Below, piece by piece: positions 5,841 to 64,000 of a DNA stretch of 64,000 bases. A program made the position numbers and the translations under genes. The stretch comes from Squalus acanthias (lineage: Eukaryota). Within the stretch, counting starts at the first letter, position 1. Each line of letters begins with the position of its first letter. The notes below the pieces were generated by a model. That model did not search any database and was not told the DNA's origin. It saw only the letters and a program-made list of their open reading frames with translations. The stretch is taken from NCBI GenBank assembly GCA_030390025.1, contig CM059438.1:65348001-65412000 (forward strand), read 5' to 3'.

Positions 5841-7139
5841 ATTTTGGTTATTTTTTCTTTTTCCAGTATTCGATAGCAGTGAAACAAGTTGCGGGGTCTT
5901 GTAGTTTTAAGAACAACTTTATACTCCTGTGATGGATCATTTATTCAACCCACTCATCCAATGTCGAAATGAGCTGAACAGAAAGATGCCAGGTTCAATC
6001 TCGGTAACACCGTCATTTGAAACTTACCCACCTCAGAGCATGGGCCCTCACCCGACATGGACTCTCAGCCACCACAGATAGTAGACCACACCCACTATAA
6101 GATCACAGCCACCACTTGCAAGGATCCAACCCTCCTCTTCCATCTTACCTACCACCGAGCATGGATCCACGCCCATCACGGATCAGTTCATTTAATTTTG
6201 TGTTGGTTGTATAAACATTTCTTCTCCCTGCCCCCCATCTCTCCCCCCAGAAAAGTCCCTTGATTACAGTCCTACTACTTTCAGGTGCAATCAACACCTG
6301 ACATAGCATATGTGAAGGGTAGTTTTTTTAAACATTATACAATCATTTGCCCAACCTTGCATGTGTTCGATAAGCCATACTTCATTTTTCTCTACCTTAG
6401 CAAGCTACGTAAACTGACTAGAATAGAACTGGAATTGGACAATGAATCTGAGGGTTGGCTGCGTCAAAATTCTCAAGATGACTGCTGGAGGCCTGTGGCA
6501 GCATAATAAGGATTGTTGGCACAGAGACTGTATGTGAAACATTAATGAAAAATATTAGAGTACTAGTCAACCAGAACTTGCACAGAGAAGTTATCCTGTA
6601 ATGTTAATGATGACAATCCAGAACTTTGAAAATTAAATTCCCTTGATTATGATTAAATATTCCAAACATCTAGTGAGACTTTGATTCAAATGTTATCCAG
6701 TTAATTTGTTCTGATGTATTGGGGGTGGGGGTGGGAGGAGAGATGAATTAAAGTATTCTCAATGCGTAAAGCTTAATTGCTTTGGGACGACAGGCTGGCA
6801 AAGTAGGTCAGCACATAATCTTTCACCTCTCTGATTTGGGTTCACATGCAGCCCAGATTAGGAGGATGCCTGTTCATTGTCTGTAGGGGCCCGATACAAA
6901 GAGAGTTTGGGAAATCTAGACCCAGTTCCCAGTGGGCATGAACAACCACTTTTATTTTATTTTTTTAAAGTGCCTTATTTGGCACAAAATTGCCAGTCTC
7001 ACAAGAGTGCTGAGTGGAGTGCCACAGGGATTGGTGTTGTGAACCCGCCTGTTTCTAATTTACATGAACAACTTGGATTATGAAGCTCAATGCAAATTCG
7101 GCAGGCAAGAGAGACAGGGGGACACTTGACGATGAAGTG

Positions 7140-56089: not shown

Positions 56090-56875
56090 GGACCAGGGCG
56101 TCACTGGCAAGGCCAGCATTTATTGCCCATCCCTAGTTGCCCTTGAGATGGTGGTGGTGAGCCACCTTCTTGAACTGCTGCAGTCCATGTGGTGATGGTA
56201 CTCCCACAGTGCTGTTAGGTAGGGAGTTCCAGGATTTCGACCCAGCGTCGATGAAGGATCGGCGATATACTTCTAAGTCAGGATGGTGTGTGACTTGGAG
56301 GGGAACTTGGAGGTGGTGGTGTTCCCATGTGCCTGCTGCCCTTGTCCTTCTAGGTGGAAGAGGTCGCGGGTTTGGGAGGTGCTGCCGAAGAAGCCTTGGC
56401 GAGTTGCTGCAGTGCATCTTGTAGATGGTACACACTGCAGCCACGGTACGCCAGTGGTGGAGGGAGTGAATGTTTAAGATGGTGGATGGGGTGCCAATCA
56501 AGCGGGCTGCTTTGTCCTGGATGGTGTCAAGCTTCTTGAGTGTTGTTGGAGCTGCACTCATCCAGGCAAGTGCAGAGTATTCCATCACACTCCTTACTTG
56601 CGCCTTGTAGATGGTGGAAAGGCTTTGGGGAGTCAGGAGGTGAGACGCTCGCCGCAGAATACCTAGCCTCTGACCTGCTCTTGTTGCCACAGTATTTATG
56701 TGGCTGGTCCAGTTAAGTTTCTGGTTAATGGTGACCCCCAGGATGTTGATGGTGGGGGATTCGGCGATGGTCATGCCATTGAATGTCAAGGGGAGGTGGT
56801 TAGACTCTCGCTTGTTGGAGATTGTCATTGCCTGGCACTTCTGTGGCGCGAAAGTTACCTGCCACTTATCAGCCC
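56090..56875 (-). mobile_element. Jockey-group LINE 3' end (same family as 18212-19012)
   Basis: ORF 56133-56927: ADKWQVTFAPQKCQAM, YKAQVRSVMEYS, KSWNSLP. Confidence 0.85.
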
Positions 56876-57359
56876 TGGTTCTAGCTAGGTCGTTGTGCAG
56901 AGCTACTGAGCAGAAGCCAAGTTCCAAAGGAAAGGAAGAAAAAAAAACGGCATCTAATAGGAGGCAGTTTCAGATCAGCGTTGTTGGAGGTTAGAGAGCA
57001 GGTCACTAGCGTTACAGATGAAGATGGTGCTTCACACAGGGTAGTTCAAGCAAGAGAGAGAAAAAGATTACCCATTGAGAATTAGGTACAGGACATCTAT
57101 TGGCTGTGGTATTGATACCTGTTTTATTGACACTCTCACAGTGTGGCAGATTCTCATTTTCTTCCCACCTCATAAGATGGTGCTCATTTTGTCCATTATA
57201 GGTGAATGAAAGGCTGAATGAACCCAGCCAGGATTCAAACCATAAGACCTTCTGACTGGTTCCACATACATTGAGCTATCTGACTTCAGATTAAGTAAAA
57301 CGGAGGAGAGGCAATACCCGAAGAAGTGGGAACTCAAACCCAACAAGGATAAAAAGTAA

Positions 57360-59334: not shown

Positions 59335-60070
59335 TGGACTGGACTAATAATCGCGGTGGAACCTGAGTTCAAATCCCACCATGGCAGCTTGAGAATTTGA
59401 ATTTAGTTTTAAAATAATCTGGAAATAAAAAGCTGGTACAGCAAAATGTGACCATGAAGTTGTCGGGTTGTCATAAGAAAAAACAACTGGTTCACTAATG
59501 TCCATTAGAAAGAAAGACTTGCATTTATATAGCACCTTTCATGACCACCGGGCGACTCAAAGCGCTTTGCAGCCAATGAAGTACTTTTGAAGTGGAGTCA
59601 CTGTTGTAATGTGGGAAACGCAGTAGCCAATTTGCGCACAGCAATCGCCCACAAACAGCAATGTGCTAATGACCAGATAATCTGTTTTAGTGATGTTGGT
59701 TGAGGGATAAATATTGGCCAGGAAACCAGGGATAACTAACCTGCTCTTCTTCGAAATAGTGCCATGGGATCTTTTACGTCCACCTGAGAGAGCAGACAGG
59801 GCCTCGGTTTAACGTCACATCCAAAAGACGGCACCTCCGACAGTGCAGTTAGGAAAGGAAATCTGCCGTTCTTAATTGATCTGGCTGATATGTGACTCCA
59901 GTCCTGCAGCAGCATGGTTGACTCTCTGTAGTGGCCGAGCAAGCCGATCAGTTGTATTAAACCATTACAAAAATGGACTGCAGTGGTTCAAGAGGAAGGC
60001 TTACCACTGAGGGCAACTAGAGATGGGCAAAAAATGCTGGCCTTGCCAGCGACGCACACATCCTGAGAAG
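59335..60070 (+). mobile_element. tRNA-derived SINE with a nested antisense Deu-type SINE (59508-59848)
   Basis: Outer SINE resumes TTAGGAAAGGAAATCTGCC after the insert. Confidence 0.7.
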
Positions 60071-60083
60071 AATTTGGAAGTCT

Positions 60084-61644
60084 TGTAGAATTCGCAAATT
60101 ATCGCGATTTCAAAATAATGAGAAAGAGACATACAGTTTCGTAAAAACAGCTTTATTTCAGCAAAATGCTGTCATGTTTCAAAACGGACACAAGCAGCCT
60201 GTAAAATGGCCGCCGCGCCTCGTGGCAGAAGGTTCCAGATTTTTCAGTAGGCAGACAAGATGGCGTTTCAATAAACATTTCAGCAAGATCGGACAGTGCT
60301 CAGCATATTGATATAAGACAAGACGCGATCGTTTTGCATTTTTAACACCTAAGCAAGAAATATAAGTGCTGGAATCGGTTTTCCATACACAAACAGGGGC
60401 TATTGTACTGGGCAATCAAGGGCCCATCCAAAGACATTGATACGCAAATTCCCCGCGGCTCTACGATGAGAGAGCCGTTCGCGGGTACTCACAGCAAGAA
60501 TTCGGAGGCCCCCAAAACCCCTCCTAGCCGGTTCCACAATGGGAGAAATATTAACGGGTACTTAGACAGTTACAAGTATCACCGAAACCCATTAACGACA
60601 AGAACCACCCCATACAAGAAGTTTGAGCGCCAAAACATGACAAAAGATGAACATTAAGTTTGGGCGGGAGATAAGGAATTAGAGTACTATAACTGTAGTG
60701 TCCAAACGCCCATCGCTCTCTTATCCTTTTCATTCGCTTGGAATCGTCTCTTGGCTATTATCCCGGACGACCGTTACTCCCTCTTGTTCCGCTGATCCCT
60801 TTTGGGGTCGACCTCGTGGCGCGCTGCGAAATCGGGTGCACTATCCCGAAGGTCGGTAAACAGTGTCTGGACCCGAAGGCCCGAGGAGATGAGATGAGAT
60901 GAGATGAGAAGAGAAGAAGAAGAATCCACGTGCCGCCGCGGTCAGTAAACCCCGACCGCGCCCGTAAATATAAAGACCATTTTTGAACTCTACAGGTTAC
61001 TGCATGAACTGGTCAAAGACTTTTCTTTGAGTTCTACAGCCGGGCCCGAGCACTGTCGAGTTCTTCATGACAACAGGGAGCCCAGCCTGCTTGCAGCAGC
61101 AGAGCAAGTAAACAAGTGGGGTACAGAGACCCCTGATCAACACGTGAATAGTCAGGTGCTGTGGCGAAAACATCCGAGCATCGTTTTAGAATTCTCCGAG
61201 TTATCACGAGTGGTGAGCATGGTTCTCGATCCTACAGATCTAGATTAGGACAGGTATTAATAGGAGAGGGTTTTGTTTTAAGGATAATTATAATGTGTGT
61301 CCCCTTTTACGATGTGTCGTGCGCTCCTCGTTTCCCTAAACCTAGTTTCCTAAATGTATGTAAGCTTGTACTGTCATTAATCTGTGCTTATGACATGTAT
61401 TTCGTAATCTTGAACAATATGCAATAAAGATTTTCCATTTCGTACTATTCAACCGGGTCTACCTGAGTTTTCTCTGCATTACTGCTCTCGCACCTAAGTC
61501 CAGTGTCAGAACAGTAAGGGCAAGTAGGTCGAACCACTCACAGGTGTCTAGTGCTACCAGGCTGGCTGGAGACCAGAACAGGCAACAAGGCCTAACCCCA
61601 CACTAGCACCCAGGCTAAGCACAGATCCACGCGAACCCCTTACA
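60084..61644 (+). mobile_element. 5' LTR (~1561 bp) of an ERV-like element
   Basis: TGTA...TACA; TATAAA ~60969; AATAAA 61423; followed by a PBS. The partner LTR is outside the window, so the start is inferred. Confidence 0.72.
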
Positions 61645-61649
61645 GGAAA

Positions 61650-61666
61650 TGGCGACCACGGAGGGA
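61650..61666 (+). promoter_or_regulatory. Primer-binding site, tRNA-Arg(UCG)-like
   Basis: TGGCGACCACGGAGGGA, 5 nt after the LTR end; complementary to an ...UCCCUCCGUGGUCGCCA tRNA 3' end; isotype from recall. Confidence 0.7.
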
Positions 61667-61702
61667 CACTGGCAGCGAGAAAGTAATGTGTTAGACCCTG
61701 GT

Positions 61703-62913
61703 ATGAATGGGCGAAATGTTATGGAAGAGAGAATAGCTGATTATGTTTTTGGGAAGGTTAATTTGACTAAGAGATGGATAAGCGACCTGCTGGTGGATAA
61801 GCGTCCGCTAGACGCAGCCATCAGGTGGACAGGTAGCAAAGAACACAAAAAATCGGTAGAGAAAGCGGTTTGGCTGATGTGTTATAAAAAGCAAGTCCAG
61901 GTTTCGGACCAGGTCATCGTAGCGCAGGCAGCTCAGATCAAGGGTTTGGAGGTGGAGATGGAAGAAAAGGTCGTGGGGGGGCAGCGGGGGATCTCCTCAG
62001 CCAGCTTGTGTTGCCGCACAATGCACACCAGCTGAGGGCTATGATCAGTCACGTACGGAAGCTGTCCGAGTCAGACAACCCTTCCGTACATTTCAGGGAG
62101 GTAGAGCAGACCGCAGCCATTAACGGCTGCGACGATGGGGAAAGGGCTAAAATGCTGCTGTTCTCCTTAGACAGCTCGATCCTCCAGTGTCTCTCAGACG
62201 CGAGCAAAAGGGGTAATAGGACCTATGAGGAGTTAAGAGAGGAGGTCCTAGAAGTGTTGGGGGCGGACGACGAAGGTCCGTTTGTTAGATTGGGACAGAC
62301 TATGCAGATGGAGGGAGAACCCCCGAAGGTTTTCGCCGACAGGCTGTGGCCGGTATATCAGCGTAGCTGCCCAGGTGCGCCCGCGCGCGCCTATCTGGGC
62401 GGTGTCAGTTTAACTCACTGGCTCAGGTGTTTAGTAGCCAACAGTTTGCCAGCCGTCAGGGAGCGGGCAAAAGTGTGGATTGACCCCACTAACCCCATCA
62501 CAACTGAGGAGTCGGTCTTAAACCAACTCACGGTAGGGTACCGTAATACTAGGAGTACGGGAGCGCGTCCCCTTAAGGGAAAGGTGCATGAGGCACGGCC
62601 CGCCGCCCCGGCTCAAAAGGAGTGGCATCAGGAGGGAAATCGCGTCCCACAAGCCAGTAATGCTTGTTTCGGGTGCGGAAAGACAGGGCACTGGCGCAAG
62701 AACTGCAGGAACCCTTGGAAGGAGTCCAGGGATAAAAATCCCGCAGCCCGAGCCCAGGCGCCTGCCTCCGATAAGGGAGCTGGTGTGCATATCCATCCCG
62801 ATGCGATAGAATCAATGCTGGGAGCCATGCGGTCTCTCATGATTTCGCAAGGAAGGGTGGCAGTCGCTACCGGCCCCGCAGATGCCGCAGCCCCGTCCGT
62901 CGGTACCCAATGA
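61703..62913 (+). pseudogene. gag: gag with a frameshift near the G run at 61975-61981
   Basis: Capsid-like region; zinc knuckle CFGCGKTGHWRKNC; ends TGA-CTAG. Confidence 0.85.
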
Positions 62914-64000
62914 CTAGAGCCCGCACAGCCCGTCTACCTGTGTCCGCTCAGCTATGATGCGTGGAAATGACCCCTGGTGGAGATGGAGGTAGAGAAGCAG
63001 AAGGGTAGTTATTTGTTGGACACGGGAGCTTCATGCACCGTGATTCATACGGATAGCCCCTTTGACTCACCACTATCTACCAAGGTCCCATACACATTAG
63101 CGGGTTCACGGGAAAAGAGCAGGCTGGCGCGTTCTCCATTCCGCTCTCCATTCATTTAGGAGCACTCCACACCACGTGGAAGTGCATACTGATGAAATGG
63201 CAAGAGGTGGGTGGGAGAGGCATCCTCGGATCAGATCTCCTATCGGAGCACGGGATCCTCTTGGACCTTAGGAATCACTGTCTCTGGGGAGCCAAGGGTG
63301 GAAAAGGCAAGGTAGTGGTAATCCCGGGGGAGGAAGGTAAAGGGGCCCTGTGTACCATGAAGCCATCCGGAGGCTATGACCTCGGGCTTATGGTCGCGGA
63401 TGTCCCAACAGACATGCAGACGTATGTGTCAGATAATATGCACGCGTTTGCAACCCACAAGCACGATTATGGGAGGGTTACCGGGTTTGAGGTCAGCGTA
63501 GACGGGGACCCCATGACCCGGCCCCAAAAGCAGTATAACTTCCCCAAAGAAGCAGAACCCGATATGGAGACAGCAATGTCCTCCTTGGTGCAGCAGGGCG
63601 TGTTGAGGCCGATAGCCACACACGTGAACTCCCCATTATGGCCGGTTAGGAAGCCGGATAATTCGTGGAGGGCCACGGTGGACTACAGGGTCCTCAATAG
63701 TAACATTCCCGCCTGCGCGCCCACGGTAGCAGCAGTTGCTGACCTAATAGGGAGTATCCCAGCGTCCGCGACCACGTTCACGGTGCTGGATATCTCGAAC
63801 GGTTTTTGGTCCATCCCGCTGCGGCGAGAGGACCAGTACAAGTTTGCCTTTACTTTCAAAGGACAACAGTACACATGGAACTGTTTGCCACAGGGTTGCC
63901 ACAACAGCCCCAGTATTTTCCATCAGTGTATGGCAGGAAGTTTAAAGGAGTTTAGTCAGCCCAATCAGATAGTGCAGTACGTGGATGATTTGCTCCTATT
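62914..64000 (+). pseudogene. pol: pol (protease + RT), runs off the window
   Basis: LLDTGAS, GILGSDLL; NSPLWPVRKPDNSWR.TVDYR.LN, LDISNGFWSIP, LPQG.HNSP, QYVDDLL; TGA at 62968 and a frameshift ~63104. Confidence 0.92.

Follow-up and report, generated by a model that had tools for sequence, protein, structure and literature searches.

The last 3.9 kb of the window analysed here, a 64,000-nucleotide stretch of the Squalus acanthias genome (positions 65348001-65412000 of contig CM059438.1; host genome of 3.71 Gb), is the front end of a provirus, with a long terminal repeat (LTR), a primer-binding site (PBS), a broken gag, a broken protease and an open reverse transcriptase (RT). We read the element on into the DNA adjoining the window, which supplies the tether, RNase H, integrase, an acidic tail, env, a polypurine tract, the 3' LTR and a closing GTCT, giving a full provirus of 12,002 bp. 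We consider with good confidence that the element belongs, as a defective copy, to an endogenous retrovirus (ERV) family of high copy number, which combines a polymerase of canonical grade (early-branching, like that of snakehead retrovirus, SnRV, or class III) with a predicted F-type Env and which likely spread by reinfection.

A previous reading of the window from its letters alone, the sequence-only reading, had proposed a deep-branching relative of retroviruses, not a gypsy element, and had assigned it to a lokiretrovirus-type lineage. The RT motifs that it named, FATHKHDYG (from 63447), NSPLWPVRKPD, LDISNGFWSIP, QYTWNCLPQGCHNSP and YVDD (63978), all lie in the open frame 63066-64000, which matches Pfam RVT_1 with E 1.8e-23, and beyond the window pol matches RT_RNaseH_2 (E 2e-20), RNase_H (E 1e-10) and rve (E 8e-16). 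Indeed, the RNase H with its tether, the integrase, the F-like env and the 3' LTR that it expected downstream are all present, GTCT flanks both LTRs as it had foreseen, and the PBS and the single CCHC knuckle were confirmed (zf-CCHC E 0.0033, below the curated cut-off). Its description of Gag as gypsy-looking was not borne out: in Pfam and the PDB the knuckle is the only match, and the capsid part gave weak matches, the best being a gammaretroviral Gag at 10.5 bits, compared with 6.5 bits for the best shuffled control. Nor is it a paradox that a class III-like RT should go with a CCHC knuckle, since SnRV has both and the two lokiretrovirus references are without a knuckle.

To place the polymerase we used foamy, gamma, epsilon and class II viruses taken from viral contigs, a 10,688-base contig as SnRV reference (its RT matches the published SnRV row) and two contigs as lokiretrovirus references, both of teleost type, with RT and Gag matching published rows. 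The trees took in these two lokiretroviruses and were built without Odin, ERV-L, CmiERV or fish and shark foamy-like ERV sequences; no lokiretrovirus or ERV-L motif was found in the viral contigs scanned, and a single RT query against viral contigs gave no match. In the tree of RT alone, with 41 rows out of 68 prepared, the window element falls with the canonical retroviruses at 100/97, the lokiretroviruses remaining outside. The canonical clade is recovered at 100/98 in the tree of RT plus tether (30 of 40 rows), with a further inner node at 98/95, and again at 100/98 when four class II RTs are added (38 rows). All three trees split 7-10 gypsy RTs from the window element at 100/100, and the element has a dual RNase H. 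The deep-branching retroviral placement of the sequence-only reading stands; its lokiretrovirus assignment is not supported. By phmmer, SnRV is the best named RT match of the window RT (219 bits), followed by the best epsilonretrovirus (180), gammaretrovirus (171) and foamy virus (168). Of all named proteins, the ERV Pols of frogs and coelacanth come closest, with 281-293 bits for the window RT and about 50% identity over RT and tether. The RT therefore sits, by its sequence, inside the canonical retroviruses, the trees leaving the order among frog and coelacanth ERVs unresolved. Most likely it belongs to an early grade of canonical retroviruses, that which the literature calls SnRV-like, clade Huo or class III. 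SnRV-like ERVs are described from sharks, coelacanth and amphibians (PMC4422223, PMC6001957, PMC4977317), and their report in frogs and coelacanth (PMC4977317) supports this reading. No tree recovers the pairing of the window element with SnRV itself, although forcing the two together is not rejected (approximately unbiased, AU, test, p=0.21), and "SnRV-like" is thus a grade label.

The envelope was described from another copy whose env is naturally open. It has a signal peptide, an N-terminal domain of about 230 residues, an RQRR motif, a hydrophobic stretch and heptad repeats and, on the C-terminal side, a Cys-rich region and one membrane anchor; its closest named relatives are Envs of skate (79%) and sawshark (65%), which makes the cartilaginous-fish host foreseen by the sequence-only reading plausible. 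The C-terminal 532 residues were modelled with 36 of 48 homologues (pLDDT 73, pTM 0.51). With this model, the top PDB matches by Foldseek were paramyxo- and pneumovirus F proteins (best E 1.4e-10, TM 0.38-0.47), the root-mean-square deviation from the F structures exceeding 20 A, probably because of the long helices. Among predicted viral structures it matched the Envs of walleye epidermal hyperplasia virus 1 (5.5e-9), feline foamy virus (3.3e-5) and walleye dermal sarcoma virus (5.8e-5), and the Atlas features of Env match Baculo_F clusters at 0.91. Pfam Fusion_gly gave E 0.077 on one Env fragment and no match on the whole Env, and a PDB search with the single sequence gave 0 matches. On the strength of the model, we predict that Env is a fusion protein of F type. 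Since foamy viruses, SnRV and the walleye viruses also have an F-type Env, this fold is no marker of lokiretroviruses.

Profile comparisons were also carried out. In hhalign the Env profile reached 98.8% with lokiretrovirus Env (E 6e-17) and 89.7% with SnRV Env (E 1.8e-6). A wide profile gave 71 and 67 bits on the two lokiretroviruses, at most 21 on foamy viruses, 14 on SnRV and about 2 on gamma Envs, the best of 584 shuffled or reversed controls giving 4.7 bits; foamy gp130 was found at E 0.0025. No member of the profile is a lokiretrovirus Env (18-33% identity, local alignments), and the lokiretrovirus signal is carried by distant alignment members, frog Envs included: a profile of the six closest rows gives the two lokiretroviruses 5 and 1 bits. 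We rejected the proposal that Env is closest to that of lokiretroviruses, because the score depends on these distant members and foamy Envs come first with 16 rows. One bridging Env begins with a segment that shares 48% identity with the end of a frog Pol model whose RT is canonical, which ties that type of Env to canonical retroviruses.

The N-terminal Env domain is probably Ig-like, a weakly supported prediction. Ig-type rows dominate the weak lists obtained with this domain, none of them significant, and gamma-type Envs are known to carry receptor-binding domains that are Ig-like (bioRxiv 10.1101/2024.03.17.585361). Against it stand the Pfam values (E 0.056 and 0.34), the pLDDT of 43 of the model, Atlas Ig clusters below 0.9, the lack of any Foldseek match below 0.001 and a best VIA match (Z 5.6) which is a ZP-N domain. 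At the start of SnRV Env (SnRV locus 6190-6500) the strand-Cys-Trp-Tyr-x-Cys spacing recalls an Ig domain, with no Pfam Ig match. In the open literature, the search leaving aside subscription journals, Repbase and bioRxiv supplements, we found no published F-type, Ig-tipped Env in shark ERVs.

We compared priming and the gag-pol junction across 21 copies, namely the window copy and 20 of the 40 RT matches that were scored, a sample hence biased to close relatives. In the window copy the PBS is complementary to the 3' end of a host tRNA-Arg(TCG) gene plus CCA. It is readable in 20 of the 21 copies and comes in two types (12 and 8 copies, one mismatch allowed), each complementary to a different tRNA-Arg(TCG) gene of the host genome. 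Long tandem arrays of a 1623-bp unit with tRNA-Arg(TCG) occur at 38.9-41.9 Mb of host contig C26, with 426 pattern matches genome-wide; tRNA-Ser(GCT) stands alongside it in the one array locus scanned. In every copy gag ends with TGA followed by CTAG, pol continuing in frame. TGA-CTA also lies between gag and pol in both lokiretrovirus loci, SnRV having TAG-GGC, but the context is not universal in lokiretroviruses: the supplement of PMC7947760 shows one gag ending in TGA with pol starting in CTG, and three elements with a single fused frame. For alphaviruses and human genes UGACUA(G) is listed as leaky, other contexts being given for retroviruses, such as the UAGGGC of SnRV (PMC13517186), and UGA-CUA is absent from the retroviral readthrough contexts in the portion of this 2026 review used here. 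The junction is likely a stop-codon readthrough signal, judging from its sequence. Speaking against this, RNA structure 3' of the stop that could stimulate readthrough scored no better than shuffles (z +1.24). In the literature searched, no paper on readthrough in lokiretroviruses came up.

Could the element be a genuine lokiretrovirus and, as such, the first from cartilaginous fish? Besides the dual RNase H, the F-type Env, the TGA-CTA junction and the wide Env profile, several results go in this direction and against our placement. Forcing the window element together with lokiretroviruses is not rejected on RT alone (AU p=0.11); the tether scores 73 and 69 bits to the two lokiretroviruses versus 32 to SnRV, and the integrase 155 and 153 versus 101. 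However, the RT carries LPQG in place of PFG, the three trees agree, and the same constraint is rejected on RT plus tether (AU p=1.3e-4). Furthermore, the CCHC knuckle and the Arg primer site are found in neither lokiretrovirus locus, the Env signal passes through distant members, and 0 of 6 chondrichthyan genomes had lokiretroviruses in the defining screen (PMC7947760). This possibility is very unlikely and largely refuted, and we conclude with high confidence that the element is not a lokiretrovirus. A recombinant, with a canonical RT set in a frame (junction, tether, integrase and env) derived from lokiretroviruses by domain shuffling, would account for the disagreement of scores from domain to domain. 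It would also agree with the repeated replacement of RNase H and integrase in lokiretroviruses (PMC7947760) and with the integrase tree (36 rows, none of them from CGIN1), where lokiretroviruses nest among frog and coelacanth relatives (94/87) and the window element lies elsewhere (90/85), neither node being starred. Yet the separation from lokiretroviruses grew stronger when the tether joined RT, crossovers would be needed on both sides of RT, and no lokiretrovirus donor of env is needed since foamy viruses, SnRV and walleye epsilonretroviruses also have an F-type Env. We regard recombination of this kind as unlikely.

A foamy-like ERV of the CmiFLERV/XtrFLERV kind is suggested by the best PDB sequence matches of RT, which are foamy virus Pols (SnRV is not in that list), and by the match of the Env profile to gp130; sharks and frogs do have foamy-like ERVs, described by their pol alone (PMC5512871). 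The window element nevertheless joined the foamy clade in none of the three trees. Foamy Gag is not known to carry the CCHC knuckle that is present here, and an in-frame gag-pol stop is unlike foamy viruses. Env here has a single anchor and an ordinary signal peptide, which also sets it apart from that of foamy viruses (PMC11468914), and we find this origin highly improbable. As for an env-carrying Ty3/gypsy element (errantivirus), F-type Envs are common there (PMC13524379) and the Baculo_F clusters point the same way, but the dual RNase H and the separation of gypsy RTs in all three trees refute it and leave it next to no probability.

A 601-bp RT piece has 1849 candidates in the genome and an env piece 2872; the 40 scored for each were 98-100% and 96-100% identical, respectively. 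A 26-mer over the gag-pol junction has 753 exact genome matches and a 24-mer over the polypurine tract and LTR 2931, the reversed controls giving 0 in both cases. The family is thus a high-copy ERV with hundreds of copies, and it outnumbers the 100-700 ERV insertions given for elephant shark, coelacanth and lamprey (PMC4977317). Target duplications, in the 15 copies with both flanks read (the window copy among them), were exact 4-bp repeats in 10, 4-bp repeats with one mismatch in 2 and a 5-bp repeat in 1, the other 2 being tandems. Compared with the window copy, LTRs are 75-95% identical and RT 98-99%, which suggests LTR subfamilies within the family. Intact frames among the 20 other copies number 7 for gag, 3 for pol and 6 for env, and no copy has all three. 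Two copies, on host contig C15, are tandem proviruses with a common LTR (the 3' LTR, then a new primer site); one tandem repeat is identical over 2100 bases and may stem from segmental duplication or from an artefact of assembly.

LTR pairs were compared in 14 of the 20 copies, since 3 had no 3' LTR in range, 1 gave an unusable multi-piece alignment and 2 were tandem arrays. The pairs are 0.0006-0.0196 apart (3 measured over a partial LTR), the closest showing 1 change in 1707. By these sequence distances the family is young, although the window copy is among the older ones sampled. The window copy itself is dead. The sequence-only reading had counted few lesions; there are eight (one in gag, five in pol and two in env), three of them inside the window (the gag deletion, the protease stop and the protease frameshift) and five beyond it. 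Its LTR pair differs by 29 substitutions in 1557 sites, plus indels (Kimura two-parameter distance, K2P, 0.0189), that is 1.9%. With the mammalian rate of PMC7947760 this K2P would give an age of about 4 million years, and with the shark rate assumed in PMC4422223 about 43 million years, both ages hinging on borrowed rates.

Variants common to at least two copies (19-21 copies) were counted as normalised replacement-to-silent ratios (N/S), by plain counting against one natural copy with a transition weight of 4 and no tree-based dN/dS. For env the ratio is 0.12 over the F part (166 silent variants and 48 replacements) and 0.14 over the N-terminal part; pol gives 0.16 and gag 0.40, singleton variants being nearer neutral (0.61-0.83). 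The env of shared variants is thus under strong purifying selection. Such constraint means that the copies descend from viruses needing Env, by reinfection or by repeated germ-line entry, and we find it likely that the family spread through the genome by reinfection; on the other side, purifying selection could partly mirror several germ-line entries of an exogenous virus. In four sequencing runs presumed to be RNA, contigs were found across all 30 bins with no splice joint to env, a result that speaks to presence only. About 20-39% of the gag-pol words recur in sequencing runs from several other organisms, one run covering the element, and one further Pol is 90-92% identical. Close relatives therefore exist in other species.

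From these elements the following life cycle may be proposed. RNA would be driven by the LTR, Gag would start at an ATG on or just past the primer site, and Gag-Pol would arise from occasional UGA-CUAG readthrough, as we infer from the junction. Reverse transcription would be primed by either of the two host tRNA-Arg(TCG) variants and integration would leave 4-bp duplications. Env would be cut at RQRR into F2-like and F1-like parts, and receptor binding would probably fall to its N-terminal Ig-like domain. What the family has in common with lokiretroviruses (the UGA-CUA junction, a little-decayed tether, the integrase type and the F-type Env) is most simply ancestral to both lineages and kept by both, the family likely preserving traits of their common ancestor.

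Features of the provirus (positions are those of the window; position p of the stretch L011 is window position 60000+p, and L012 is a further adjoining stretch)
Feature	Position	Strand	Remark
Left target-site duplication GTCT	60080..60083	+	Identical to the four bases after the 3' LTR
5' LTR, 1561 bp, TGTA...TACA	60084..61644	+	Aligned to the 3' LTR
TATA-like box in 5' LTR	60969-60974	+	By eye, putative
AATAAA in 5' LTR	61423-61428	+	By eye, putative
Primer-binding site, tRNA-Arg(TCG)	61650..61667	+	17/18 bases match host gene
gag, broken near 61986	61649..62913	+	559-nt frameshifting deletion
Single CCHC zinc knuckle	62665..62706	+	Pfam zf-CCHC
TGA-CTAG gag/pol junction, pol in frame, putative readthrough signal	62911..62917	+	21/21 copies
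Protease region, DTG at 63019-63027	62914..63530	+	Stop 62968-62970; frameshift near 63102
RT core, window ends after YVDD	63531..64000	+	Runs on to about L011:4322; RVT_1 E 8e-37
Tether and RNase H	L011:4374-5300	+	One stop and one frameshift; Pfam
Integrase and acidic tail of about 270 aa	L011:5520-7402	+	One stop; Pfam rve
env	L011:7675 to L012:24	+	Two frameshifts
RQRR cleavage motif in env	L011:8652-8663	+	
Polypurine tract	L012:460-472	+	
3' LTR, 1613 bp	L012:473-2085	+	
Right GTCT duplication	L012:2086-2089	+	Same as bases before the 5' LTR

In the window copy and in the copies compared with it, the first in-frame ATG of gag (61649-61651 in the window) overlaps the PBS, further in-frame ATGs following within 110 nt, and the leader between PBS and gag is almost nil; a packaging signal would therefore have to sit in R-U5 or in gag. 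The end of Pol (L011:6600-7402) consists of about 270 acidic, Pro/Ala-rich residues with an internal repeat, open in most copies and with no Pfam match. The provirus has no separate 3' accessory frame of at least 100 aa and no separate smc-like frame before gag, the coiled-coil stretch of Gag having no SMC match in Pfam. Outside the provirus, a frame like the end of a long interspersed element (LINE) RT was recognised by eye at 56133-56969 of the window (minus strand; no Pfam match), as were a Penelope-type RT with a GIY-YIG end (L012:6126-7415, minus strand) and a piece of a Harbinger-type transposase (L012:9344-9856, minus strand).

ERVs of SnRV-like type had already been published from chondrichthyans, as had the F-like Env of foamy viruses. 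The combination found here, a canonical RT with a junction, tether and integrase of lokiretrovirus type and a constrained F-type Env, bears on the number of times that envelopes were gained. The Odin paper (PMC9040795) argues that no similarity can be detected between the envelopes of canonical retroviruses and lokiretroviruses and that the two were acquired independently. A canonical RT together with an F-type Env, a lokiretrovirus-like gag-pol stop context and a profile link through frog relatives offers a direct test of that view. We tentatively raise the possibility, doubtful as it is, that, of all descendants of the first enveloped retroviruses, the shark, frog and coelacanth grade has changed least, and that an F-type Env and Gag-Pol synthesis by UGA-CUA readthrough were already present in the ancestor common to canonical retroviruses and lokiretroviruses. 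If so, envelopes would not have been gained twice, contrary to PMC9040795, and gamma- and beta-type Envs would be later replacements. The shark family may then still have circulating exogenous relatives, given its constrained env and its closest LTR pair.

Among known systems, SnRV shares with the family the LDISNGFWSI and LPQG.H.SP motifs of RT, one CCHC, a coiled-coil Gag, an Arg tRNA primer, an LTR ending in TTACA, an in-frame gag-pol stop and a remotely homologous Env. It differs by its junction, by its Arg(ACG) primer, by a signal-peptide-like start and splice donor 5' of gag (the signal peptide lies within env here), by an Env tail of 136 residues versus about 30 here, and by its 3' accessory ORF; the LTRs are 1.6 kb here, and no tree shows the two as sisters. 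The SnRV-like, clade Huo or class III ERVs include CmiERV lineage I of the elephant shark (PMC4422223, PMC6001957, PMC12193657); the scaffold-2 primer site of CmiERV differs from that of the window family (PMC4422223 supplement), and that element therefore belongs to another family.

Lokiretroviruses, defined in PMC7947760 (Wang and Han 2020) and renamed lokiorterviruses in PMC9040795, have in common with the family a tether plus RNase H, shared by all retroviruses and hence not diagnostic, an F-related Env with R-X-X-R cleavage, not diagnostic either, the TGA-CTA junction in both loci, and a similar tether and integrase. Their published RT rows that we read have PFG and their clade excludes the window RT, and here the protease-RT spacing is short, Env has an extra N-terminal domain and there is no separate smc frame. 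Closer to the family are the frog and coelacanth Pols, annotated as "protein NYNRIN-like" in Latimeria, Pyxicephalus, Rhinophrynus and Aquarana, and those of Xenopus tropicalis. In the Pyxicephalus model Pol runs into a V-set-like segment, with which an Env from this superfamily shares 48% identity at its beginning. The label of these nearest Pols is automatic, and the donor of the mammalian CGIN1/NYNRIN integrase may be this grade and not lokiretroviruses. Finally, foamy virus Env, a class Ib fusogen (PMC11468914), shows a similar F-like structural core within Retroviridae. Its receptor-binding domain is inserted between the subunits and it has two membrane segments (PMC11468914), whereas in the Env of the window family the extra domain is N-terminal and the anchor is single.

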